From NCBI GenBank assembly GCA_023485505.1, contig JAMCZN010000041.1:1-23857 (forward strand): DNA of 23,857 bases, given 5' to 3'. Source of the DNA: Candidatus Marsarchaeota archaeon (GTDB lineage Archaea > Micrarchaeota > Micrarchaeia > Micrarchaeales > Micrarchaeaceae). Made by a program: the position numbers and the translations under genes. The number at the start of each line of letters is the position of its first letter. Positions within the stretch are counted from its first letter, which is position 1. Shown here piece after piece: positions 1-22,010 of the stretch. The notes under the pieces were generated by a model that saw only the letters and a program-made list of their open reading frames with translations, was not told where the DNA came from and did not search any database.

Positions 1-956
1 ACACCACCATTAGATATTATTCTTTTCGTTATAAGTCCTCTGTCTTCACATATTCGTATGAAAAGTAGTCTATTAATAAGTACATAGATTGATTCCTTAC
101 AAAATACCTGCTTATTCTCCTCCTCCTTATCATCTGGTCTGTTTGAAAGTGCTTTCCAAATATAATATCCTGAAAATGTTGAAAATTTCTTATATCTGCC
201 CTCAGTTTTTAATTCGTACCTTGCTATCTCGGCAGCTTGCTTTCTGTTATCTCCATTATGTTTTTTCATTTCTTCTAATTCATCTTTAGTTTGTTTATAC
301 TGCGCATAGTTGGCATAATATTCATCAAACGCAGAATAGGTGTACTGGCGCAATATATCATTTGAGATGTAATTTAGTTGTTCTATAAGTTTATCAAAGC
401 CTACATCCTCTGCTACATCTATTTTAGCGTAATATGGATCAAAAATACCATATTTTGCTTCGCTCCATATCTGTTCTTTTGTTATGTTATTCAAAAAAAG
501 AATCTGTTCTGTTTCTTTTGTAGAAATTTTGCTTTCTGTTGTTCTCTTTGAATTTATAAGATTCAAAAAGTCTATATCAGATTTTAGGATTTTTTCTCTA
601 CCAGTAATCTCCCATAATATGAACCTGTAACCATTGGTAAGACCTACAAAATGTGTTGAAGAATCTGCATATTTACCTGCTTGATCCCGCCATGTTTGGG
701 CGTCTAAATTCTCTTTTGGCCGTTTTGTCTCTATTACAACTATACGATTTTTGTTTTCATCAAGAAGTGTTATATCTGTCCTACTACGTTCAAACGTGTA
801 GTCCGACCCTTCATATCCTAAAACGCCCTCTATCAGATATTTAGCTAGTCTTGGACTAAAATCATGCTCAAGCGAATCTATAGTTATCTCGCTGTTTATC
901 TTCTTAAAAGCGAGTAAGATTTTGTCTGTGAAACTTAAATCTTGTTTAGAAATCAT
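1..956 (-). CDS. Restriction-modification enzyme, N-terminal part. It has an HsdR_N/Mrr-like PD-(D/E)xK nuclease domain and a helical spacer, and is probably type IIG or type ISP. The 3' end runs off the window.
   Basis: This gene is absent from the supplied ORF track because it has no stop codon within the window; I translated it by hand. ATG lies at 956-954 on the minus strand, and at least 318 codons are open down to position 3. The N-terminus is MISKQDLSFTDKILLAFKKINSEITIDSLEHDFSPRLAKYLIEGVLGYEGSDYTFERSRTDITLLDENKNRIVVIETKRPKENLDAQTWRD. The DITLLDE...IVVIETKRP segment is a classic D-x(n)-(D/E)-x-K nuclease core of the HsdR_N/Mrr type. About 190 aa downstream is the motif INRLLFIRICEDRGLI. 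I recognise this as the conserved helix that precedes the gamma-class N6-adenine methyltransferase domain in type IIG/IIL enzymes (MmeI-like) and in BREX PglX. No Walker A helicase motif appears in the 318 aa, which argues against a type I HsdR. Confidence 0.6.
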   Translation of the reverse strand, partial: MISKQDLSFTDKILLAFKKINSEITIDSLEHDFSPRLAKYLIEGVLGYEGSDYTFERSRTDITLLDENKNRIVVIETKRPKENLDAQTWRDQAGKYADSSTHFVGLTNGYRFILWEITGREKILKSDIDFLNLINSKRTTESKISTKETEQILFLNNITKEQIWSEAKYGIFDPYYAKIDVAEDVGFDKLIEQLNYISNDILRQYTYSAFDEYYANYAQYKQTKDELEEMKKHNGDNRKQAAEIARYELKTEGRYKKFSTFSGYYIWKALSNRPDDKEEENKQVFCKESIYVLINRLLFIRICEDRGLITKRIISNGG

Positions 957-965
957 TTTGCCAAC

Positions 966-2045
966 CTATTCTAATTTCTTTTGCCCTACCTCCTCACCTT
1001 TAAATATTCCGCTTTTCCACATTTTCTCAACGAAATAGCTAGTTATTTCCTTCTCTGGTAATTCTTTCCAGACAACTTTGTATTTGGTATTTTCAGTAAC
1101 CTCGCCGTTATCCCTTTCTACCAAACCCATCTTGACAAAGTTTTCCATAGCTGTTGAAACAAGTTGGGTTTTAAACTGAATTCTTTCTGTAGCACCGTTG
1201 CTATCTACTATATAAGGCAATGAGTAGAGCTTATTTAGATACTTAATTAACTTTGACAATTTTACTTCAAACACATTTTCTCCTGTCCTATACCACTCCA
1301 AAATTATATCCTTATCAGATTTTTTATTTATTTCAGGAAATATTTGCGCCCATAATAGTTGCATTACATATACTATCGGAGTTGCGCCATTATTCTCTTC
1401 AAATATTTTAAACATTCCAATTTCTTTATCTAGTTCTCCTCTGTAATAACTTATTTTTCCTCTCTTTATCTTATTTTCAATTTCACTAGAACTCAATGTT
1501 CCCCATTCATATGATATTCGTATCTGTTCCGTATTAGCTAATGGTTCAACAACATATACTAAAAGAATAAATTTTCGCTCAAATGCGCTTTTTTGTTTAT
1601 CAAGGAAATCAAATTTTAATACAGCCATTGCATCGGTACATCCCTGTGGAGCAAGTAATATTAAATCATGATTCTTTATGCCGATATTAGAAATGTTAAT
1701 ATCATATGATTTTAGTTGCTTAATTAGGTCATTTTCTATAAACGTCTTTAGATAATCTTCTTCAGAAACAAAAATTTGCCTGTTATTAGGATTCGGCAGC
1801 GACCTTTTGGCATCTCCAACTATTGCAAATTTTGGCAATTTTATTATTATATCTGGAGTAGGCGAATTTTTGTCATTTGGAATAATCCTTCCGCCAAAGT
1901 AAAACTCGCCACCTTCACTTTTTGTGAATTTGTACAAAGCAATAAGAGATTTTAATAAACGCTGGTAATTGTTTATATCAGCAGCTATCTCTCTCTTCTT
2001 GCTTTCCAAGCCCTCTGGATCTTTATCAGACATTTTGAATTTCAC
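966..2045 (-). CDS. Hypothetical protein of 359 aa (356 aa from the ATG at 2033). Candidate PD-(D/E)xK nuclease-fold protein, second gene of the island operon.
   Basis: Long ORF in the AT-rich island. The track start at 2045 is GTG. An ATG at 2033-2031 overlaps the stop of the upstream gene in the string ATGTCTGA, which indicates translational coupling. The segment SPTPDIIIKLPKFAIVGDAKRS fits the PD-x(12)-(D/E)xK spacing. I recognise no other family signature. Confidence 0.55.
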   Translation of the reverse strand: MKFKMSDKDPEGLESKKREIAADINNYQRLLKSLIALYKFTKSEGGEFYFGGRIIPNDKNSPTPDIIIKLPKFAIVGDAKRSLPNPNNRQIFVSEEDYLKTFIENDLIKQLKSYDINISNIGIKNHDLILLAPQGCTDAMAVLKFDFLDKQKSAFERKFILLVYVVEPLANTEQIRISYEWGTLSSSEIENKIKRGKISYYRGELDKEIGMFKIFEENNGATPIVYVMQLLWAQIFPEINKKSDKDIILEWYRTGENVFEVKLSKLIKYLNKLYSLPYIVDSNGATERIQFKTQLVSTAMENFVKMGLVERDNGEVTENTKYKVVWKELPEKEITSYFVEKMWKSGIFKGEEVGQKKLE

Positions 2046-3105
2046 CCTCGTAATTCTCAGTTAGAAAAGACAGCAATCGGTTAAATACTGTTGGAGTAAC
2101 TTGTGTCTGCGGTATTATATGTATTTCATTTGAAGCGGGAACCGTTATATCAAAAGAACCTCCAGAAACGTAATCCAATACATTCAATTCTATAAAAAAT
2201 TTGTTTAAAGAAATTATTGAATACCCCCATTTTGGCAATCCCTTTATTACTTCAATAAATTTAAGCGCATCATTTTCTTCTAGGAACAACTCACTCTTCA
2301 ATTTTATCTTTATAGGTTTTGCAACTACATCATCAAAACTTCTTGCCCTATTTTCTAAGGTGTTTTTATATAGTTCATCATTCCATGTTTTCAATAACTC
2401 TTCTAAAACAAAGACAAAGAACTTGGCGAAACCCATATTTCTATATGAGAATATCCCGTCCCTGCCTATCCTTAGTTTACTAACCGCATCTGACTCGGAT
2501 TTTCCCTTTAGATTAACTACGATGCTATCTACCCACATATGTTCACTAACAGCGTTCAAAAACAAGTCGGAGTAAGGAGTCTTAGCAAAACATAGCCTCG
2601 TTTCTTTTTTGCCGTAATATCTCTTGACAACATAGCGTTGGGCTTCTATGTCCGTCTCGGTTGTCTTTTCTATGCGTCCAAGTAGCTTTAATAGTTCTAC
2701 AGAGCTAAAGAATGTTCTTGATATTAAAGGATAGTAACTTCTGAAAAATGCCAATTGTACATTCTTAAAGTCTATATGTTTTGCATTACTAAGGATTATT
2801 CCAATAGGCCACTCTTTTAAATTTATCAACAAACAGCTTGGTTCTAAATCTTTCCCATATAATTTTAATCTGAATTTAAATATATCGCCAATTTCACTTT
2901 TATCAATTTCGAAAGTTGTACCGTCAAACGCAGCTGGCATGTGCTTTTTGAACAACTCTGCCATGCTATATCTTTTATCATAAGTGCAGATTGCAACTTT
3001 AGGAGGAGTACCGCTAACTTCACCAAATAGGCGTTCTATCGTAATAAAAAATTTACGCTTATTCTGATCTAGCATGCCGTATTCTTCTATTTTCATTGAA
3101 ACCAT
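2026..3105 (-). CDS. Hypothetical protein of 359 aa, first gene of the island operon.
   Basis: ATG at 3105-3103. An AT-rich TATA-like stretch lies 25-35 nt upstream on the minus strand, consistent with a leaderless transcript. The ORF is 1080 nt and uninterrupted in roughly 30% GC DNA, which is unlikely by chance because AT-rich sequence is stop-codon rich. I recognise no family. Confidence 0.5.
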   Translation of the reverse strand: MVSMKIEEYGMLDQNKRKFFITIERLFGEVSGTPPKVAICTYDKRYSMAELFKKHMPAAFDGTTFEIDKSEIGDIFKFRLKLYGKDLEPSCLLINLKEWPIGIILSNAKHIDFKNVQLAFFRSYYPLISRTFFSSVELLKLLGRIEKTTETDIEAQRYVVKRYYGKKETRLCFAKTPYSDLFLNAVSEHMWVDSIVVNLKGKSESDAVSKLRIGRDGIFSYRNMGFAKFFVFVLEELLKTWNDELYKNTLENRARSFDDVVAKPIKIKLKSELFLEENDALKFIEVIKGLPKWGYSIISLNKFFIELNVLDYVSGGSFDITVPASNEIHIIPQTQVTPTVFNRLLSFLTENYEGEIQNV

Positions 3106-3206
3106 TCTAAATTAGGTTGACGCTATTCTTTAATTCTAAGCATTTAACGCTCTTATGCCTTTCTGATTATGGTTGGCTCTATCATTAGGCACTTCTCAAT
3201 AAGCCT

Positions 3207-3247
3207 GATTGGACTCCTTGATGCTATTTACAAGCCGTAGTCCAATC
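3207..3247. repeat. Inverted repeat of 9 bp with a 23-nt spacer (GATTGGACT ... AGTCCAATC) in the intergenic region between the AT-rich island and the GC-rich RNA locus.
   Basis: Positions 3207-3215 are the exact reverse complement of 3239-3247. Confidence 0.5.
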
Positions 3248-3344
3248 CAATTATTGCCCCGATTAGGTTTATAATCTCGTTCCCGCTTCCGGATTTGCGC
3301 CTAGCCATAGTAGTATATCTCAGCAAAGAATTATCAGTTTTATG

Positions 3345-3650
3345 GTAAGGAAACCTATAATCCTTAAGCTACGCCAACACGTTCATCCTACAGATTCACG
3401 TGGGCTAGCGTCCCCACGGACAGCAAGCTGGCAACCCAGCAAGCGGCTGATTTTGCGGGGGGTCAAAATCAGCCTTAACGCCGCCATGTCTTACAAGGTA
3501 GCCGCGGCAGCCGTAGCCCGCCGTGCGACACCAAAGGTGTCTTCTGGGCGGGCGGAGGCTGCGTGGCGGGGTTTCTCTACACGAAACTCTACATGGACGG
3601 CTATAATATTGATGTGCAGTCATGTAGAGAGAAAATAGCCTCATTTTGAG
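3345..3650. ncRNA. GC-rich, highly structured non-coding RNA locus of about 300 nt. Class is unassigned; SRP/7S RNA or RNase P RNA are the size-compatible candidates.
   Basis: GC content jumps to over 60% for about 280 nt between AT-rich flanks. The only ORFs here are two overlapping low-complexity frames on opposite strands, which is typical of GC-rich RNA. Extensive nested complementarity is present. An 11-bp perfect hairpin spans 3445-3474. A 6-bp hairpin spans 3527-3541. A long interrupted helix pairs 3481-3486 with 3564-3569, 3508-3512 with 3557-3561 and 3516-3522 with 3547-3553. The CAGCAAGC octamer is duplicated at 3421 and 3437. CTCTACA occurs three times (3575, 3587, and inverted at 3622). 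A TATA-like box at about 3313-3320 and a T-rich tract after a hairpin at about 3636-3680 suggest plus-strand expression, but strand is not proven. Confidence 0.4.
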
Positions 3651-3700
3651 GGCTTGAGAGAGATGTGGTTTTTACAAACATTTCATAACGTAATATTCAA

Positions 3701-4861
3701 TCATGGCTGCATCCAGTCAATCTCATAATACTCGTATTCGCTCTTTGGAAGGCTAATGCGCCTTATCTTGTAATAGGTCACTGCAGTTTCCCTGTCGGCT
3801 ATGGCAACAATGAGCTCCAGCCTGTGCTCCTTCGCTTCGTTTATTATGGCCGAAAGCTCGGCTCCGCCTATGAACTCGTCTTCGCTTATGGACAGCATGG
3901 CGAACCTTGGCCTGTCCTTTCCGGGGGTCTCTATGTTCCCATCCTTCCTGTGGTACAGTACGAAATCCATCAGAAGCTTTTTCTTCCGGCTTTTTCCCGG
4001 GATGGCAAGGATGAACGTCTTCCTTACGGAATGCGCGACCCTTATGGCGCGTGCCCATTCTGAAATGAGGAGCTTAGCGTCCCTTGGGAACACGTGTATG
4101 ACGTGCTTTGAATGCACCCAGTCTTCGTTTCCCCTTATTGGCCTTGCGCCTGGAAAATAAATCCTGAAATGCGTGCCGAACTTGAAGCCCGTCTTCACAA
4201 CATAGCCCTTGCTCCTCCAGTCCGCATAAACCTGATACAGCTTTGGAAAATCCTTTCGTCTCTTTGTTGCCATTTTTATTATCTCCGATTTGCTGTAGTT
4301 CCTTACGTTTAGGGACTTGTTTTCCATAAGGAAAATGGTTTCGTATGCGTCAAGCTTGTTTAGTATGCCCCTTTCGCTTATCTTGTAGGTGCCGTATTGC
4401 CCGAACCATTGTTCGCTATATATCTCCTTGCCCTTTTCCGAATCGTCCACTATGCACATAAGGTCTTCGGGAAAGAATAGCCCTTCAAGCCTGTAGTTTT
4501 TGAGCTTGAATTGCGATGATGGGTAACCCTTTATTGGGGTTTTGTTCCCATCCTTTGACAATTGGATCTCTTCTGGCTTCTTTATTATCAGTCCCCTGTC
4601 CCTCCAGTCCTTGTATGTGAAATATCGTGCCATTAGCTTTCCGGAAAATCCGAACCTTTCGACAAGCCCGTTGAAGTGAAGTTTTTCCCCGTTGTCTCTG
4701 CATTCGGCATTTCTGACGTCAATAAGGTATAGGGCTTCTTCTGGGCTGAGGTGCAAAGTCCCATCTTTAAGAGTGCCTATATGGCCCTTCATCAGTATGT
4801 CTTTTGACGACTGGTCAGTAACGACTACCCTGTTCGTATCTCTTATTTCAAGTAAAAGCAA
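3701..4861 (-). CDS. endA: tRNA-splicing endonuclease EndA, 386 aa, multi-unit fused form.
   Basis: The N-domain motif HLSPEEALYL is present. The catalytic-domain motif is LYQVYADWRSKGYVVKTGFKFGTHFRIYFPG ... HSKHVIHVFP. An upstream degenerate copy, ARYFTYKDWRDRGLIIKKPEE, indicates an internal duplication with one pseudo-catalytic unit. The C-terminus reads LELIVAIADRETAVTYYKIRR. The track start is TTG. At 386 aa the protein is larger than the roughly 180-aa alpha4 and roughly 290-350-aa alpha'2 forms. Confidence 0.8.
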   Translation of the reverse strand: MLLLEIRDTNRVVVTDQSSKDILMKGHIGTLKDGTLHLSPEEALYLIDVRNAECRDNGEKLHFNGLVERFGFSGKLMARYFTYKDWRDRGLIIKKPEEIQLSKDGNKTPIKGYPSSQFKLKNYRLEGLFFPEDLMCIVDDSEKGKEIYSEQWFGQYGTYKISERGILNKLDAYETIFLMENKSLNVRNYSKSEIIKMATKRRKDFPKLYQVYADWRSKGYVVKTGFKFGTHFRIYFPGARPIRGNEDWVHSKHVIHVFPRDAKLLISEWARAIRVAHSVRKTFILAIPGKSRKKKLLMDFVLYHRKDGNIETPGKDRPRFAMLSISEDEFIGGAELSAIINEAKEHRLELIVAIADRETAVTYYKIRRISLPKSEYEYYEIDWMQP

Positions 4862-6794: not shown

Positions 6795-7175
6795 TTATGT
6801 TGGCTTTCCGTTCTTATTCCGATTCGCTACCTTGCCAACAAAGTGGATTACAAGCAGCGCAATTGCAAACCATATGATGAAATCGAGGAATGCTCCAAAG
6901 TAATTATATGAAAAAACACATCCGGATGGCGGATGTCCGTATATCGTTTGCGGACAGAACACATTGCCTACTGAAAAGAAATCGAAGCCAAAACCAGACA
7001 TTGATGTCAGATATGGCGCTATCGCCAATCCGACCATCGCACCGATTACCGCCGATATTATTGTTTCGAAAATAAATCGCATAATGGGATATGGATTTAT
7101 CGGCTTTAAAACTTTTGAAAGCGTTTGGTTTCTAGATAAATCTGCTCTTTGTCTTGTTGCGAACAAAAACTTCAT
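6795..7175 (-). CDS. Small integral membrane protein, hypothetical.
   Basis: The 126-aa product has 3-4 predicted hydrophobic helices and no recognisable family. Confidence 0.4.
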   Translation of the reverse strand: MKFLFATRQRADLSRNQTLSKVLKPINPYPIMRFIFETIISAVIGAMVGLAIAPYLTSMSGFGFDFFSVGNVFCPQTIYGHPPSGCVFSYNYFGAFLDFIIWFAIALLVIHFVGKVANRNKNGKPT

Positions 7176-7235
7176 CCAATCAGAATATCGGTTAAATTAA
7201 CGGATATGCTTGTCATAGGAAAGCAATCACTATGC

Positions 7236-8039
7236 CTACAGCTCCCCATCTATGTAATGTTTTGACGCGGATATTGCAGAATCCCAAGGTGCCTTTTCTG
7301 CTACAAGGTGAAAGTCGTTCCCTTTTTCTAATATGTATTTATCGATACTACCAATATTGGCGCCTTGCTTTTGCATTTCTTTCAAAATATAGCTATATGA
7401 CGGCATCTTTATTGAAAGCACACCGACCGGACCATCAGTTAGATTCGCTATCGCATGGGCATAGCCGGCGGGTATGCCGACTACCGTTGCAGCGTCATAC
7501 ATGCCGCCAACTGCATAAAGAGATCCTGCTGTTGAAATTGAATCGGCAAATTTGTTTTCGCTTACCATAAACACTGGTGCCCCCAACCAACCAATCTTTA
7601 CTTCCATTCCGTTTGCAGCACAGTAATGCATGTGATAATGCAATGGTCCTGAAACCCCTGGAGGTATGATGTCGTATGTCACTTCAAATGGCGCTGATGA
7701 GCCTTTTGGAGTCAATGGGACGAACAATGCCCCATCGAGATACATATGGGCTCCCGTCGGTATTTCATACGGTTTTCTTACAAGCCGGAGAGTGCTCTCG
7801 TTTACAATGTCGGACATGCCAGCAAGCTCCATCGCCTTACGGACCATCCTTTCTATATAATCGCCCTTAAGAATTGGGCTCCTATTCGGAAAACTAACGT
7901 TTTCGTATTTTATTTCTGAGGGTACTGTTGGCATGTTATCAAGCATTTGACGAGTTTCCTGATATTTAAGCGTTTGGAATTGAAGTACTGTCAGCATTCT
8001 GCCGATTTTCAATAACGGATCCCCTCTTAAGGGCCTCAT
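7236..8039 (-). CDS. Cupin-fold protein. Possibly a metal-dependent sugar-phosphate isomerase or epimerase-like protein; function uncertain.
   Basis: The segment PPGVSGPLHYHMHY...ME resembles the cupin motif G(x)5HxH...E. The product is 267 aa. The likely start is an internal Met at 7997, which reduces the overlap with the upstream gene. Confidence 0.45.
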   Translation of the reverse strand: MRPLRGDPLLKIGRMLTVLQFQTLKYQETRQMLDNMPTVPSEIKYENVSFPNRSPILKGDYIERMVRKAMELAGMSDIVNESTLRLVRKPYEIPTGAHMYLDGALFVPLTPKGSSAPFEVTYDIIPPGVSGPLHYHMHYCAANGMEVKIGWLGAPVFMVSENKFADSISTAGSLYAVGGMYDAATVVGIPAGYAHAIANLTDGPVGVLSIKMPSYSYILKEMQKQGANIGSIDKYILEKGNDFHLVAEKAPWDSAISASKHYIDGEL

Positions 8040-9848: not shown

Positions 9849-10303
9849 CCCTTGGTTATGTTGAATGTCGCAGTTGTTCCGCAGGTTGCAGATGGTGCTG
9901 CGGAGTATGTGTTCATCACTATGGAGTAATTGCCAGATGGGAGCGAAGTCTCGTTTTCGGAGTAGCCGCACGCTCTTGTATTAACGGAGATGTTTCCCTT
10001 GCTTGATGAGACCACCACGGTAGCATTTGATGTTCCAGCAGTAAGCTGCACTATCATTGCACCGCCCGGCCACGCACAGCTCTTCTTTATGTATGCGTAG
10101 GAATGAGTCGTGGTAAGCTGATAATCGTTACAAGAAGTAAGAGAGGACGTGTTATTCGTCGCGCTGTTTGATGTTGTAGTGTGATTGGATGCGGAAACCT
10201 GAACTGCGGTGAACGAGGGCGCCCCATTTATAACGTATGCGCTGGCCACGCCCAGTATTGCGGCTATGATCATAGATGTTACGTAAAGCGCAACTGGTTT
10301 CAT
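9845..10303 (-). CDS. Secreted Ser/Thr-rich protein, hypothetical.
   Basis: N-terminal signal peptide MKPVALYVTSMIIAAILGVASAYV. Composition is Thr/Ser/Asn-rich with possible glycosylation sequons. Length is 152 aa. Confidence 0.45.
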   Translation of the reverse strand: MKPVALYVTSMIIAAILGVASAYVINGAPSFTAVQVSASNHTTTSNSATNNTSSLTSCNDYQLTTTHSYAYIKKSCAWPGGAMIVQLTAGTSNATVVVSSSKGNISVNTRACGYSENETSLPSGNYSIVMNTYSAAPSATCGTTATFNITKG

Positions 10304-10413: not shown

Positions 10414-10539
10414 CGCCAGGGTAGGGATTTGAACCCTAAAGCCCCGAAGGGCACCGGTTTGCCTGTTTCGCATCACTAATCAGCTCTTGATATTTTAAAA
10501 ACTCAAGACCGGCGCATTACCGGATTCTGCCACCCTGGC
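10414..10539 (-). tRNA. tRNA-Ser(UGA) with a 42-nt intron at the canonical 37/38 position.
   Basis: I folded the cloverleaf by hand. The acceptor is GCCAGGG/CCCTGGC with discriminator G73. The anticodon stem is CCGGT/ACCGG and the loop is CT-TGA-G. A long variable arm (GCCC-UUCG-GGGC) marks it as class II. The T-arm is TAGGG-TTCAAAT-CCCTA. The intron forms a canonical bulge-helix-bulge. Exon CTTG (positions 32-35) pairs with intron CAGG. The two 3-nt bulges are AG|T and CA|A. An intron-internal UUUU/GAAA helix is also present. Confidence 0.85.
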
Positions 10540-11472: not shown

Positions 11473-12339
11473 ATGAACAAGATAACGGCGATACTCAGGC
11501 TTACAAGGATAGAGCACTCTTTGATGCTGATAGTCGCGGTAGTGGCCGCGGAGATGGTCTCTGGAGGCATTCCCTCTTTTCCAATACTGATAAGCAGCCT
11601 CGTATCTCCCGCGCTGGTAAGCATGGGCGCATTCGCGATAAACGACTTCTATGACGTAAAGGCAGATATTGCAAACAAGAGGTTTGAGAGGCCACTGGTG
11701 GCTAAGGCGATATCGCCGCAGGTTGCGATCATGGTCTCTCTCCTGTGCCTGGTTATCGGGACCACATTGAGCATGTTCATAAACCTCTATGCCTTCGCCA
11801 TTGCGATAATATTTGCGGCTCTTGCACTGCTATACAGCTACAAACTTAAGGACCTGCTCCTATGGGGCAACGTATACATAGCGTTCACAATGGTGATACC
11901 TTTCGTATATGGGGACCTGGTAGTTGCGCCTTCGATAAACATGGACATAGTGTTGATATCATTTGTCGTGTTCCTTAGCGGACTTGCGCGTGAGATACAC
12001 GGAATGATACGGGACGCAAAGGGCGACAAGAGGGCAAGGAGGTCAAGGAACCTTATCCAATATGTGGGGATAAACAATTCATCGGCAATAGCCCTGATAT
12101 TATATGCTGAAGCGATAGTGATAAGCATATTCATGTTCCTTTACAGCATGCCGTTCCTTTACAACATAGTTTACATAGTGCCAATAGCCATTTCTGACAT
12201 AATGCTTGCTTATGTCGCAGTTGGCTACAGGTTCAAGAGCAATAGAAGGTTCTTCGACATGTCAAGAAACCTCAGCCTGGGTGCAATGGGGCTTGCTTTG
12301 CTCGCTTATCTTCTAGCTTCCGTAGTATACCTTGTGTGA
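11473..12339 (+). CDS. UbiA-family prenyltransferase, probably a digeranylgeranylglyceryl phosphate synthase-like enzyme.
   Basis: Eight or nine transmembrane helices. The aspartate-rich motif AINDFYDVKADIANKR (NDxxDxxxD) sits at the cytoplasmic end of TM2. A second D-rich region is also present. Confidence 0.75.
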   Translation: MNKITAILRLTRIEHSLMLIVAVVAAEMVSGGIPSFPILISSLVSPALVSMGAFAINDFYDVKADIANKRFERPLVAKAISPQVAIMVSLLCLVIGTTLSMFINLYAFAIAIIFAALALLYSYKLKDLLLWGNVYIAFTMVIPFVYGDLVVAPSINMDIVLISFVVFLSGLAREIHGMIRDAKGDKRARRSRNLIQYVGINNSSAIALILYAEAIVISIFMFLYSMPFLYNIVYIVPIAISDIMLAYVAVGYRFKSNRRFFDMSRNLSLGAMGLALLAYLLASVVYLV

Positions 12340-12415
12340 ACCTGTCAGCGTCTGGAAAAATCAGATAAAAAAAAGAAAATAGCAGGAGCCCTATTCGGCC
12401 CCTGCCCCCAACCAC

Positions 12416-14203
12416 CTAGGAAGTTACCGTCGACTTTGGCAGATTCTTCTCAGTGCTCGTCTCCGTTTGGCCCGTTCTCAGGAAGCTTTTTACCAATTCT
12501 CCCACGGTCTTGCCGGCGTTTGCCGGATTTGTGAGTATTGATATCAGTTTGTCCTGGGTTTCTGGGCTCAGTCCGGCTACCTGCAACTCCTGCGCAAGGG
12601 CTATGCCCTGTTCAGGTCCGACCAGTATCTCACCGAGCAATCCGCCGCTTGTCAGCTTTTGCGGGTTATCGGTAATCAGGTTGATGTTCGCGCGTCCTGC
12701 CACCTGTGCCATCGCTTCTGCCCTCTTCAGATTGACGACCTGCCATGCATCAATCTTCTTGGCGTCAAGCGCCGCATGTCCGCCGCCAGTGGCATCCATG
12801 TATTCCTTCTGCGCCTTGGCCTGCTCCCTGGTGCCGTTTGCTTGCCCGACCAATTTTGCCTGGATGGCTTCTCCGTCCGCTTTACCCATTGCGGCTATCT
12901 TGGCGGCTTCTCCCTCTCCCTCCGCTCTTGCCCTTGCTCCGGCGCCTTCTCCCTCTGCCGTAAGCCTTGCCTTCGTTCCGGCTCCTTCCAGTTCTGCCTT
13001 CTCTTTCGAGGCCTGTGCCTCAAGGATGGTCTGCTGCTTGTTGGCCTCTGCCACCAGAATCTTTGTCCTGTTGTCCGCTTCAGCCTCCTTTATTCTCTTT
13101 TCCTTCTGGGCATCGGCATTGGTTATGGTCACCGTCCTGCTATAGTCGGCAGTACCCGTTTGCAGGGCCCTTTCCGCCCCTACCTTCTTCTCGTTGGTCT
13201 CCTTCGTTGCATCCTGCACCGCCTGTTCCATCTGCTGCTTTGCGACGCCAAGTTCCTTATCCTTCTGGAAATCCCTCTTTCCGGCCAGTTCTGAATTCTC
13301 GGCCTCTGCTATCTCAGCCTCCTTTTTCTGGGTTGCCACTACGACCCTCGCTTCCTTCTCCTGTTGTGCGACTATCTTCTTCGTATCTGCATCAACCACT
13401 GCCGCTCTCTGCCTTTGCAGGTTGTCTATGATCACGCTCCCGTCAGCATCTTTTATTACGGGAACCTCCACGTTTACAAGCTGCAATCCCCACTTAGGGA
13501 ACAGGTCTCTGACCTCCTTCTCCACCGCATGCTGCAGCTGATCCCTGTTCTTGAACAGGTCCATTATCGTGTGCTGCATTGCCGCTGTCCTGATGATTGA
13601 TTCGACCATTACCCTGAAGTCGTCATCGATCTCAATCCTCAGCCCGTTTGAATTGGCTCCCGGAGCGTTGCGCCCTTCATATGGCTCCCTGCTTCCAGTA
13701 ATCGTCGTCCTTTCTGCCGCCATTATCGGGTCTACCACGTGGACGAACGCCACCACATCGCACAGGAATTCTGCAAAATCCTTGTCGTTCAGTTTGATGT
13801 TTACTGCGCTTACCCTGAAGTTCGAAAGAGGTACGGTTATCGTTTTCTGGAATTTGCCGATCTTTGGATACACGGCGTTTGGAACCCTGTCCCTTTCACC
13901 GTAAACCGTGTGCTTTTCGTGGCTTTCCGGATCCTCCACCAGCACCGGGCGTTCTACTTCAACACCGGTTTCTGCGTCTTTCGTCTTCTTTGTTATCAGG
14001 AAGTACTCCTTTTTCCTTGCAGAATACTCGTGTACTCCGTGTCCGTCCGATACTACCACTGCGACGTTTGCTGGAATAACGTGTTGCCAACCAAACATAA
14101 TCTTAAGTCTGCTGGGCTGAACTATCCAGTTATCTTGTGCTAGCTTAGCAGATGCATCCTCCTGTGCATCGTTTCTGTTTTTTGTGTTGCTTTCTGTGGT
14201 CAT
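12416..14203 (-). CDS. Flotillin-like SPFH/band-7 domain protein with an EA-rich coiled-coil tail.
   Basis: An SPFH core (IPANVAVVVSDGHG...) is followed by about 250 aa of Glu/Ala/Lys/Gln-rich heptad repeats (AEGEGAGARARAEGEGEAAKIAAMGKADGEA), as in flotillin/YqiK. Length is 595 aa. No N-terminal transmembrane helix is apparent. Confidence 0.7.
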   Translation of the reverse strand: MTTESNTKNRNDAQEDASAKLAQDNWIVQPSRLKIMFGWQHVIPANVAVVVSDGHGVHEYSARKKEYFLITKKTKDAETGVEVERPVLVEDPESHEKHTVYGERDRVPNAVYPKIGKFQKTITVPLSNFRVSAVNIKLNDKDFAEFLCDVVAFVHVVDPIMAAERTTITGSREPYEGRNAPGANSNGLRIEIDDDFRVMVESIIRTAAMQHTIMDLFKNRDQLQHAVEKEVRDLFPKWGLQLVNVEVPVIKDADGSVIIDNLQRQRAAVVDADTKKIVAQQEKEARVVVATQKKEAEIAEAENSELAGKRDFQKDKELGVAKQQMEQAVQDATKETNEKKVGAERALQTGTADYSRTVTITNADAQKEKRIKEAEADNRTKILVAEANKQQTILEAQASKEKAELEGAGTKARLTAEGEGAGARARAEGEGEAAKIAAMGKADGEAIQAKLVGQANGTREQAKAQKEYMDATGGGHAALDAKKIDAWQVVNLKRAEAMAQVAGRANINLITDNPQKLTSGGLLGEILVGPEQGIALAQELQVAGLSPETQDKLISILTNPANAGKTVGELVKSFLRTGQTETSTEKNLPKSTVTS

Positions 14204-16480: not shown

Positions 16481-16568
16481 TGGGGCCGCCGAGATTTTCA
16501 GCCGAAGCATTTGAACTCGGGTCGCTACCACCCCAAGGTAGAAGCCTACCAAGCTAGCAGACGGCCCC
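16481..16568 (-). tRNA. tRNA-Pro(GGG) interrupted by a 15-nt intron in the T-loop (non-canonical position 59/60).
   Basis: Folded by hand. The acceptor is GGGGCCG/CGGCCCC with discriminator A. The anticodon arm is CTACC-TTGGGGT-GGTAG with anticodon GGG. The T-stem is CCGAG/CTCGG and the T-loop is TTCAAAT. The T-loop is split by GCTTCGGCTGAAAAT, which lies at plus-strand positions 16494-16508. The pre-tRNA forms a perfect bulge-helix-bulge. Exon TTCA pairs with intron TGAA as the central 4-bp helix. Two AAT bulges carry the splice sites. The intron tip is GC-UUCG-GC. Removal gives a 73-nt mature tRNA. The D-stem is weak, with only three pairs plus a U10-U25 mismatch. Confidence 0.75.
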
Positions 16569-18197: not shown

Positions 18198-18282
18198 TGC
18201 GGAGGTAGGGATTTGAACCCTAGCAGTCCTACGACACTGAGCCCTCAACCCAGCGCATTTGACCAAGCTCTGCCACCTCCGC
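18198..18282 (-). tRNA. tRNA-Leu(GAG), class II, no intron.
   Basis: The acceptor is GCGGAGG/CCTCCGC with discriminator A. The anticodon arm is CTGGG-TTGAGGG-CTCAG, with one G-U pair. A long variable arm and the T-arm TAGGG-TTCAAAT-CCCTA are present. It lies between rpoD and rpl18e. Confidence 0.85.
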
Positions 18283-21256: not shown

Positions 21257-21331
21257 AGCGGGGTGGGGTAGTCTGGAGTGCCCGTCGGGCTCATAACCCG
21301 AAGATCGGTGGTTCAAATCCACTCCCCGCTA
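21257..21331 (+). tRNA. Initiator tRNA-Met (CAU).
   Basis: It has the A1:U72 pair (AGCGGGG...CCCCGCT-A). The anticodon stem is TCGGG/CCCGA with three consecutive G:C pairs next to the loop CTCATAA. The T-arm is GGTGG-TTCAAAT-CCACT. The archaeal initiator hallmarks are the A1:U72 pair and the three G:C pairs. A T-rich tract follows. Confidence 0.85.
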
Positions 21332-22010
21332 TTAATCCTTATTTTGTTTGGAGAAATGATATTTTAGTTTTGTTGTTCTTTCTTTGTTTTACCTTGATTA
21401 GCCCAAACATGATGCTTCTGCTCTACCCCACAATTCCACTAATAAATCCTAAGTTCTTAAAAAATTCCATTATTATATTGGTATTTTGGTTTGATTGAGA
21501 TGTAATATTATAAGAGAAGCCACGAATACCGGAACTTTGGGGTGTATACCCTTGTTTGTCCACTTACAAACATACAGTACTAACAATGCAATATATCACA
21601 AACTCGATAAGCTGAGGGCAGCGCAGTATGCCGCAGGTTCACTAAGCAATCTATTCAACTCACATTTCGGAGCTGGTGCTGTTTTACCGAACGACGCACA
21701 GACTGGACTCCTTACAGTCCACACTATTGGGATTGCTACAAGCAAGAGGCCAGAAACCAGGAATGCTAGGAAATAACCTATTGCAGAATATTGCCGAATT
21801 AGAATACCTATAGTTCCAGCGGCAAACCACAGCGGGGGCCTGCCACGACCTTAGCCGATCTGCAAAATGAAATTGCACAAAACTACTCCGATATCCTTTA
21901 CTTCCACTAAACGTTGGTCTAACTATATTTATAATAGTTGACATATAGATTAATCTCGGAATCTACGCGTAACTACGTTACGGTGTAAGGATCCCTGTTA
22001 TACAGGTGAG

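Follow-up and report, generated by a model that had tools for sequence, protein, structure and literature searches.

An epsilon-type, three-unit tRNA-splicing endonuclease and two strict-motif tRNA introns in one genomic window of a Micrarchaeota-type archaeon

Introduction

To which class does a tRNA-splicing endonuclease (EndA) belong when its gene shares a stretch of genome with one tRNA gene that has a canonical intron and another that has an intron in the T-loop, and does the unusual intron need an unusual enzyme? The question is raised by a 23.9-kb stretch of contig JAMCZN010000041.1 (the window, by which we mean this stretch over its whole length) from a metagenome-assembled genome (MAG) labelled "Candidatus Marsarchaeota archaeon" at NCBI, where endA encodes a protein of 386 amino acids (aa). 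A preliminary description, made from the letters of the DNA alone, had likened this protein to the three-unit, epsilon-type enzyme of ultrasmall acidophilic archaea and had presented the T-loop intron of a tRNA-Pro gene as exactly such a substrate as its relaxed specificity would serve. Our results bear out the likeness but not the need for relaxed specificity. With a probability of about 0.95, the EndA of the window is an orthologue of the epsilon2 endonuclease of ARMAN-2 and the housekeeping enzyme for splicing of bulge-helix-bulge (BHB) motifs in a Micrarchaeota-type archaeon.

The epsilon2 class was described in 2011 (Fujishima; PMC3239211), crystallised in 2012 (Hirata; PMC3488258) and captured with RNA in 2025 (Miyata; PMC12397907). 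The crystal structure 4FZ2 shows the epsilon2 enzyme from ARMAN-2, Candidatus Micrarchaeum acidiphilum (PMC3488258), and 9W2K is the same enzyme complexed with a BHB RNA (PMC12397907). The division into two catalytic units and a third, structural one proposed in 2011 (PMC3239211) was superseded by one into alphaN, alpha and betaC units; in the crystal, helices alpha4 and alpha10 sandwich the betaC sheet, and alphaN and betaC together form a pseudo-subunit (PMC3488258). The searchable literature discusses the three-unit enzyme for ARMAN-1 and ARMAN-2 only.

Results

Homology of the window EndA

The open reading frame (ORF) of endA was confirmed with its TTG start codon (Table 1), and its product is already deposited at NCBI as MCL5430560.1, "MAG: tRNA-intron lyase [Candidatus Marsarchaeota archaeon]". 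Pfam finds PF01974 tRNA_int_endo (5.9e-30, best stretch at residues 205-288) and PF02778 tRNA_int_endo_N (3.3e-12, best stretch at residues 10-66), each in two stretches. When the chains of the PDB were searched with phmmer, the ARMAN-2 enzyme (4fz2_A/9w2k) was the standout match at an expectation value (E) of 5.6e-164, residues 2-386 of the query being collinear with residues 3-387 of the chain, and 240 of the 384 residues aligned globally were identical (62.5%). The matches to two-unit alpha'2 enzymes (1r0v, 2gjw and 2ohc) and to one-unit alpha subunits (1a79, 2cv8 and 3iey_A) are confined to residues 160-290 or thereabouts, with E between 1e-9 and 1e-23. Weak matches to the C-terminal 60 residues or so come from structural beta subunits: NEQ261 of Nanoarchaeum (3iey_B, residues 320-370, E = 0.0015) and PAE0789 of Pyrobaculum (2zyz_A, E = 0.046).

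Units, key residues and predicted fold

When the unit limits of the ARMAN-2 crystal structure (PMC3488258) are transferred by alignment, the published limits are matched by all five segments, and these follow one another as alphaN, linker 1, alpha, linker 2 and betaC (Table 1). The two catalytic-domain cores of the preliminary description call for a partly different reading. Both motifs are present, and the two segments of the form Y-x-Y-x-DWR-x-(R/K)G-x-(I/V)-(I/V)-K align with each other (BLASTP E = 5e-4), but the supposedly degenerate core, ARYFTYKDWRDRGLIIK, occupies residues 78-94 and closes the alphaN unit; judged by alignment, this region is the counterpart of the final helix and strand (alpha4 and beta6) of ARMAN-2 alphaN. 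On direct reading, this helix-strand motif concludes the alphaN unit at residue 94, and the unit holds no triad positions. The core described as intact is so: YQVYADWRSKGYVVKTGFKFGTHFRIY spans residues 209-235, with YQVYADWRSKGYVVK starting at residue 209 and TGFKFGTHFRIY after it, and H250 lies downstream.

The catalytic triad Y235/H250/K281, which corresponds to Y236/H251/K282 of ARMAN-2, is found in the alpha unit only. The clamp residues R274 and W383 are equivalent to R275 and W384, and K227, S251 and D356 to K228, S252 and D357. The ARMAN-specific loop at residues 157-167 reads GTYKISERGIL against GTYKVSEHGNL in ARMAN-2, so that Y159 and K160 stand for Y160 and K161. Across 47 homologues with 63-73% identity to the query, Y159, K160, K227, Y235, H250, S251, R274, K281, D356 and W383 are invariant. 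In ARMAN-2, mutagenesis and the RNA complex showed what the catalytic, loop and clamp residues do (PMC3488258, PMC12397907); K228 and D357 are needed for activity, and D357 for assembly too (PMC3488258).

An AlphaFold2 model built from the alignment of these 47 homologues had a mean predicted local distance difference test (pLDDT) score of 85.3 and a predicted template modelling (TM) score of 0.79, with the lowest confidence at residues 101-110. Foldseek superposed the whole chain on 4fz2_A with TM scores of 0.94/0.94 and a root mean square deviation of 2.3 A, and on the chain of the RNA complex, 9w2k_B, with a TM score of 0.92. Query-normalised TM scores were 0.52-0.55 against the alpha'2 structures 2gjw and 1rlv, the chimeric Archaeoglobus fulgidus enzyme 3p1y and the subunit fusion of Methanopyrus kandleri, 5x89. 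The model predicts that alphaN is packed on betaC.

Intron-bearing tRNA genes

Introns were sought as strict hBHBh' motifs, defined as a 4-bp central helix, two 3-nucleotide (nt) bulges and flanking helices, with the cut set between bulge nucleotides 2 and 3, where cleavage is seen in the ARMAN-2-RNA structure (PMC12397907). Every candidate was spliced in silico, and the product was run through ARAGORN at its default threshold. The two strands of the window hold 1,899 strict BHB-like patterns with intron lengths of 11-300 nt, so the pattern by itself is common by chance. Just two candidates restored a complete tRNA with an interior junction, namely tRNA-Pro(GGG) and tRNA-Ser(UGA); in the other spliced hits, either the tRNA (mostly tRNA-Met) was intact and the junction spurious or close to an end, or the junction was an alternative one in the intron region of the tRNA-Ser.

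The tRNA-Pro(GGG) gene was missed by Rfam and by default ARAGORN and was found in part at a lowered ARAGORN threshold. Its T-loop, UUCAAAU, is split by 15 nt after position 59. Helix h is the T-stem (CCGAG/CUCGG), the central helix pairs UUCA (54-57) with UGAA, the bulges are A58-A59-U(i1) on the 5' side and A-A-U60 on the 3' side, and h' is a GC stem of 2 bp closed by a UUCG loop. ARAGORN calls the spliced product a 73-nt Pro(ggg) with the junction after position 59, and the 59/60 intron reported earlier stands. The gene lies in a cluster of ribosomal-protein and RNA-polymerase-subunit genes (an Rpb3-like subunit; S9 and L13 upstream, S2 downstream), a location that argues for a working tRNA-Pro(GGG).

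The canonical intron that had also been reported is that of the tRNA-Ser(UGA) gene. Its central helix pairs CUUG (32-35) with CAGG, the bulges are A36-G37-U and C-A-A38, and h' is UUUU/GAAA. Rfam, unlike default ARAGORN, recognises the gene as a tRNA (45.7 bits) whose anticodon loop holds a 45-nt insert, and ARAGORN calls the spliced product tRNA-Ser(tga); on its own, ARAGORN -i mis-parses the gene as Ala(tgc), because it puts the intron within the anticodon. The tRNA-Pro and tRNA-Ser introns are both strict 3-4-3 hBHBh' motifs, and no relaxed-motif intron was found in the window in a relaxed search limited to 3-nt bulges.

Two further tRNAs, Leu(GAG) at 18198-18282 and Met(CAU) at 21257-21331, were found by both default ARAGORN and Rfam. 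Low-threshold ARAGORN also proposed Cys (7144-7310), Gly (9880-10051), Arg (11691-12631) and Ile (21514-21904) tRNAs, which have implausible introns or lie inside ORFs; we discarded them, and the BHB scan recovered none. The roughly 670 nt downstream of the tRNA-Met (21340-22010) contain no ORF of more than 93 aa and no Rfam match, and the "tRNA-Ile(tat) with a 296-nt intron" suggested there by low-threshold ARAGORN is unsupported by the BHB scan.

The enzyme and the introns in relatives

Database searches gave 1,549 proteins related to the window EndA at E <= 1e-5, the best 120 of which are 368-406 aa long, 63-73% identical and matched over essentially their full length. Relatives are encoded at 400 loci when one genome is taken per GTDB species. 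The best 80 of these are mostly labelled Micrarchaeota, have 60-71% identity and include the complete genome of Candidatus Micrarchaeum sp. A_DKE and a Mancarchaeum bin; a few bins among them go under the names Marsarchaeota, Methanothrix or Acidiferrales, which looks like noise from labelling or binning. Among other "Marsarchaeota" bins, those of one study (FK_Sedi_*) have the epsilon-type enzyme too. The NCBI label of the source MAG is probably wrong or follows another convention.

Introns in relatives were surveyed in the best 80 loci (1.38 Mb; here and below, loci in other genomes are numbered with the prefix L), with strict BHB motifs and introns of 11-150 nt; the counts of 59/60 introns are for this reason a lower bound. 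ARAGORN found 91 uninterrupted tRNAs and 23 with anticodon-loop introns, to which the BHB scan added 17 tRNAs with a 59/60 T-loop intron, 4 of them Pro(GGG) and 13 Lys(CUU). The tRNA-Pro(GGG) genes belong to four close relatives (Table 1) and have introns of 14-15 nt. Their BHB core, UUCA-AA/UGAA-AA, is identical to that of the window, and the hairpin-forming interiors vary (gcaauggc, gaauuuc and gagaaauc in the relatives, gcuucggc in the window). The 53/54 intron of the ARMAN-2 tRNA-Pro(GGG) is absent from all four. Introns of 40-42 nt homologous to the 37/38 intron of the window occur in six related loci; by their spliced products, four of these genes (L024, L033, L042 and L046) are Ser(UGA), and in the other two (L002 and L012) ARAGORN -i gives Ser(tga), yet the spliced products are labelled Gln(ttg).

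The tRNA-Lys(CUU) gene is found near endA itself. In 32 of the 80 loci it is convergent with endA, at a distance of between 8 nt and about 2.5 kb on the downstream side; 13 of these 32 genes have a strict-BHB 59/60 intron of 13-43 nt and 19 are intron-less, which makes the intron polymorphic among orthologous genes. We found no paper on such a tRNA-Lys polymorphism beside endA, in a literature whose coverage was incomplete.

Surroundings of endA

The genes next to endA are of a housekeeping kind and encode RadA and a TP_methylase-family methyltransferase, which we read as diphthine-synthase-like. A terminator-like hairpin follows endA (Table 1); terminator-like sites in the region are no more numerous than expected from shuffled sequence. 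The slot taken by tRNA-Lys in relatives is empty in the window, and a low-GC insert is there instead.

The 600 nt downstream of endA include a GC-rich stretch (3385-3625, about 62% G+C) that has no convincing ORF and is strongly structured (RNAfold z scores of -5.1 for the plus and -5.8 for the minus strand). Three collinear hairpins, A, B and C, define a structured element within it (Table 1), which matches no Rfam family. All three recur collinearly in L081 (7290-7430) and L187 (2949-2814); across the three copies there is conservation in the hairpin loops, as in UUUUGACCCCC(N)GCAAAA, the differences between the stems are compensatory, and a MAFFT alignment of the copies is poor. The L081 copy is located upstream of a gene pair homologous to the two 359-aa ORFs described below, and the L187 copy between a tyrosine integrase and a Shedu-type gene. 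In L187, an intron-bearing tRNA with a 24-nt anticodon-loop insert (4055-4147, minus strand) adjoins the integrase (3126-3956, minus strand), past which come short ATGTAGAGTAA-like repeats, the structured element, the Shedu (SduA_C) gene and a nuclease-like gene, a layout that resembles a tRNA-integrated defence island. A metagenome scan for the hairpin-loop motif gave mostly chance matches, with L187 the sole true relative, and two scans of viral contigs for the same motif gave nothing useful. The element seems to travel with inserted defence-type cargo and not with endA, and it may be an RNA, a single-stranded DNA origin or a recombination site.

Other identities of the GC-rich stretch were tried and rejected. 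A by-eye resemblance to RNase P RNA or signal recognition particle RNA did not hold, as Rfam at E <= 10 on 606 nt returned only noise and the universal P4/CR-I nucleotides are absent. As a tRNA-Lys(CUU) split by one or two BHB introns, it gave no tRNA among 9,585 spliced variants, and BLAST with tRNA-Lys found nothing; nor is it a conserved neighbour of endA, since nhmmer and blastn found nothing in the 80 related loci.

The low-GC segment (1-3105) has a GC content of 0.32-0.34 against 0.43-0.52 elsewhere in the window and carries two 359-aa ORFs, which match nothing in Pfam or PADLOC and which, when compared as possible paralogues, proved unrelated. They form a conserved two-gene module with just 15 database homologues, found elsewhere (L084, L085 and L087) beside GmrSD, a type IIG/BREX-like methyltransferase, MjaI restriction-modification, an SMC-like ATPase and integrases, and we regard them as a candidate uncharacterised defence pair. 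An AlphaFold2 model of the first (pLDDT 86.7) had weak fold matches only (RdgC, RnlA N-domains and CENP-L/N; TM <= 0.34).

Table 1. Positions of the endonuclease gene, its units, the interrupted tRNA genes and other features
Feature	Coordinates	Strand	Details and basis
endA, epsilon-type (three-unit) tRNA-splicing endonuclease	3701..4861	-	386 aa, TTG start, stop codon 3701-3703; ORF, Pfam, PDB match
alphaN unit, residues 1-94	4580..4861	-	ARMAN-2 residues 3-97, 55% identity; N-domain-like sheet and helices, without catalytic triad
Linker 1, residues 95-124	4490..4579	-	ARMAN-2 98-125, 32% identity, least conserved segment
Catalytic alpha unit, residues 125-287	4001..4489	-	ARMAN-2 126-288, 65% identity
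Linker 2, residues 288-299, PGKSRKKKLLMD	3965..4000	-	ARMAN-2 289-300, 75% identity
betaC structural unit, residues 300-386	3704..3964	-	ARMAN-2 301-387, 75% identity; carries D356 and W383
tRNA-Pro(GGG), 88 nt (73 + 15-nt T-loop intron at 59/60)	16481..16568	-	Direct reading and spliced ARAGORN call
T-loop intron U-GCUUCGGC-UGAA-AA, 15 nt, h = 5, h' = 2	16495..16509	-	Complementarity and BHB scan
tRNA-Ser(UGA), 126 nt, class II, long variable arm, G73	10414..10539	-	Rfam and direct reading
Canonical intron at 37/38, 42 nt, h = 8, h' = 4	10460..10501	-	Direct reading and BHB scan
Terminator-like hairpin CCUCAAAAUGAGG, then CUAUUUUCUC tract	3630..3651	-	50 nt downstream of endA stop; consensus scan, putative function
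Structured element	3410-3553	-	Three collinear hairpins A, B and C within 3385-3625
Hairpin A	3553-3516	-	
Hairpin B, loop UUUUGACCCCCCGCAAAA	3474-3445	-	
Hairpin C, GUCC-GUGG-GGAC	3421-3410	-	
Two 359-aa ORFs	2026..3105 and 966..2045	-	Low-GC segment
tRNA-Pro(GGG) in four relatives	L001 2212-2299, L002 2578-2664, L004 2166-2253, L012 2202-2289		
tRNA-Lys(CUU) near endA, example loci	L026 7112-7201, L068 6799-6888, L069 11121-11227, L078 11709-11799		

Discussion

Homology to the ARMAN-2 enzyme, the mapping of the units, the conservation of the key residues, the predicted fold and the geometry of the introns are shown here. The window EndA adds one member to a class that is known and whose structure has been solved, and there is nothing new in the enzyme itself; as one of hundreds of orthologues, already deposited, it matters little for discovery. 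The value lies partly in annotation, as the gene can now be labelled epsilon-type, tRNA-Pro(GGG) can be added to the gene set and 10414-10539 is to be read as Ser(UGA) and not as Ala. It lies also in the survey of relatives, in which 59/60 T-loop introns are recurrent in the Micrarchaeota lineage and an endonuclease of three units is standard in Micrarchaeota and not confined to two acid-mine organisms.

We infer dimerisation, catalysis, broad specificity and the processing of both tRNAs of the window by analogy with ARMAN-2. By homology, alphaN, with an N-domain and one helix and strand of a C-domain, would pack with betaC, the rest of a structural C-domain, to give the pseudo-subunit, and alpha would be a complete catalytic subunit within the same 386-aa chain. 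Two such chains, whose interface residues are conserved, would dimerise to mimic the four-subunit archaeal endonucleases, with two active sites spaced for the two bulges of the BHB motif, and cleavage between bulge nucleotides 2 and 3 would leave a 2',3'-cyclic phosphate. Tyr235 would activate the 2'-OH, His250 would protonate the leaving group and Lys281, with Ser251, would stabilise the transition state. Arg274 and Trp383 from the partner chain are predicted to sandwich the first bulge base, and Tyr159 and Lys160 of the lineage-specific loop to grip the backbone of the second bulge nucleotide, a contact that in ARMAN-2 underlies the tolerance for relaxed motifs. The likely substrates in the window are pre-tRNA-Pro(GGG), with its 15-nt intron at 59/60, and pre-tRNA-Ser(UGA), with its 42-nt intron at 37/38; the exons would be joined by an RNA ligase, and none is found among the window ORFs scanned with Pfam.

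Some of our observations weigh against this interpretation. Linker 1 is only 32% identical to that of ARMAN-2, and the equivalents of ARMAN-2 K241 and K244, which are dispensable in that enzyme (PMC3488258), are Arg in the window EndA. Dimerisation and specificity are extrapolated from an enzyme with 62.5% identity, and both introns of the window are strict BHB motifs, so relaxed specificity is neither demonstrated nor required by them. In the minimum free energy structure computed by RNAfold, the T-stem and the UUCG mini-hairpin are kept and the A/U-rich 4-bp central helix of the T-loop BHB is left open; the case for the motif is thus its exact geometry, its complementarity and its conservation in relatives.

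That the protein is instead an alpha'2-type endonuclease of two units whose linker is unusually long or whose N-terminus is extended, like those of Archaeoglobus and Thermoplasma, is very improbable. The length of 386 aa, which the preliminary description had taken to be too great for alpha'2, does not exclude that class by itself, being not far above the 289-315 aa of alpha'2 enzymes, and Pfam sees N-domains and C-domains only. It is homology that decides: alpha'2 chains align over about residues 160-290 at E values around 1e-23, the epsilon protomer aligns from end to end, and the TM score of 0.94 to 4fz2_A against 0.52-0.55 to the two-unit chains excludes two units joined by a long linker, the outcome that had been named as refuting the three-unit proposal. 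In addition, the second clamp residue, W383, is Trp as in the epsilon2 and (alpha-beta)2 enzymes, whereas alpha'2 enzymes have Arg (PMC3488258, PMC6379350), the window EndA has a specificity loop that alpha'2 enzymes are without, and its C-terminal unit matches structural beta subunits. Homology, residue alignment and structural comparison have thus already refuted the alpha'2 reading. We give equally little credence to the views that the ORF is an inactive paralogue or a pseudogene, or that separate alpha and beta genes were fused by misassembly; the source is a MAG and the start codon is TTG, but the frame is intact, the length fits that of hundreds of homologues from independent assemblies (368-406 aa), the catalytic and interface residues are all invariant, and there is no second endonuclease gene within the window.

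A functional co-dependence of enzyme and substrate, in which the T-loop intron of the tRNA-Pro would need the epsilon-type enzyme's relaxed specificity, is a more serious proposal but still an improbable one. Non-canonical introns correlate with (alpha-beta)2 and epsilon2 enzymes across archaea (PMC3239211, PMC6379350), and T-loop introns are recurrent in genomes that carry the epsilon-type enzyme. However, the tRNA-Pro intron has the strict 3-4-3 motif, and what defeats the alpha4 and alpha'2 enzymes is a relaxed motif (hBH, HBh' or altered bulges) and not the position of an intron, since they still recognise introns at various sites (PMC3239211, PMC6379350); the T-loop introns of the ARMAN-2 pre-tRNA-Pro(GGG) were themselves described as strict (PMC3239211). 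Since both introns in the window are strict, neither needs relaxed specificity, and the claim that the tRNA-Pro is exactly such a substrate has to be given up. What the window shows is an association, at the level of the lineage, between enzyme type and intron placement, and not the dependence of a substrate on broad specificity.

The polymorphic tRNA-Lys(CUU) introns beside endA lead to a tentative idea, for which the odds are against us: that position 59/60 of the T-loop is a lineage-wide hotspot of intron gain and loss in Micrarchaeota and that endA is physically linked to one of its own T-loop-intron substrates. If true, the presence or absence of an intron at 59/60 in orthologous tRNA genes would point to ongoing intron turnover at one preferred site, and a possible cause of this turnover is selection against integrases that target the 3' part of tRNA genes.

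Of the known systems, the ARMAN-2 epsilon2 EndA (4FZ2, 9W2K) is the one that the window EndA resembles throughout, in its collinear 62.5% identity, length class, unit order, identical triad, Tyr-Lys loop, Arg/Trp clamp, equivalents of K227 and D356, and predicted fold (TM 0.94). The two differ in the divergent linker 1 and in the Arg residues at the positions of K241 and K244. Their hosts both have a tRNA-Pro(GGG) with a 59/60 T-loop intron, but in ARMAN-2 this tRNA is reported to have two T-loop introns, at 53/54 and 59/60, and in the window it has the one at 59/60 only; a relaxed 59/60 intron is also reported in pre-tRNA-Cys(GCA) of ARMAN-2 (PMC3239211). The EndA of ARMAN-1 (JF433956, 390 aa) was reported as the second three-unit enzyme, 62% identical to that of ARMAN-2 (PMC3239211), a divergence in the range of that of the window EndA, and a 388-aa protein from a "mine drainage metagenome" among our relatives (P0111, 63% identity) may be the ARMAN-1 EndA or a close relative of it.

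The crenarchaeal and nanoarchaeal (alpha-beta)2 enzymes (Aeropyrum pernix 3P1Z/3AJV, Nanoarchaeum equitans 3IEY and Pyrobaculum aerophilum 2ZYZ) share with the window EndA a catalytic alpha and a structural beta part, the Arg/Trp clamp, a lineage-specific loop that bears a Lys, adjoins the active site and gives broad specificity (presumably so in the window EndA), and the association with non-canonical tRNA introns. Their alpha subunits match the alpha unit of the window EndA with E = 1e-12 to 1e-15, and their beta subunits weakly match betaC. In contrast to the single chain of three units encoded in the window, they consist of two separate polypeptides and have no alphaN unit, and there is no homology between their specificity loop (CSL) and the ARMAN-specific one (PMC3488258). 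The euryarchaeal alpha'2 enzymes (A. fulgidus 1RLV/2GJW and Thermoplasma acidophilum 2OHC) are single chains that form a homodimer mimicking a tetramer, as is predicted for the window EndA, and use the same catalytic chemistry, but they are built from two complete units, each with an N-domain and a C-domain, where the window EndA has three partial ones, and they have an Arg/Arg clamp, lack a specificity loop and require a strict BHB motif.

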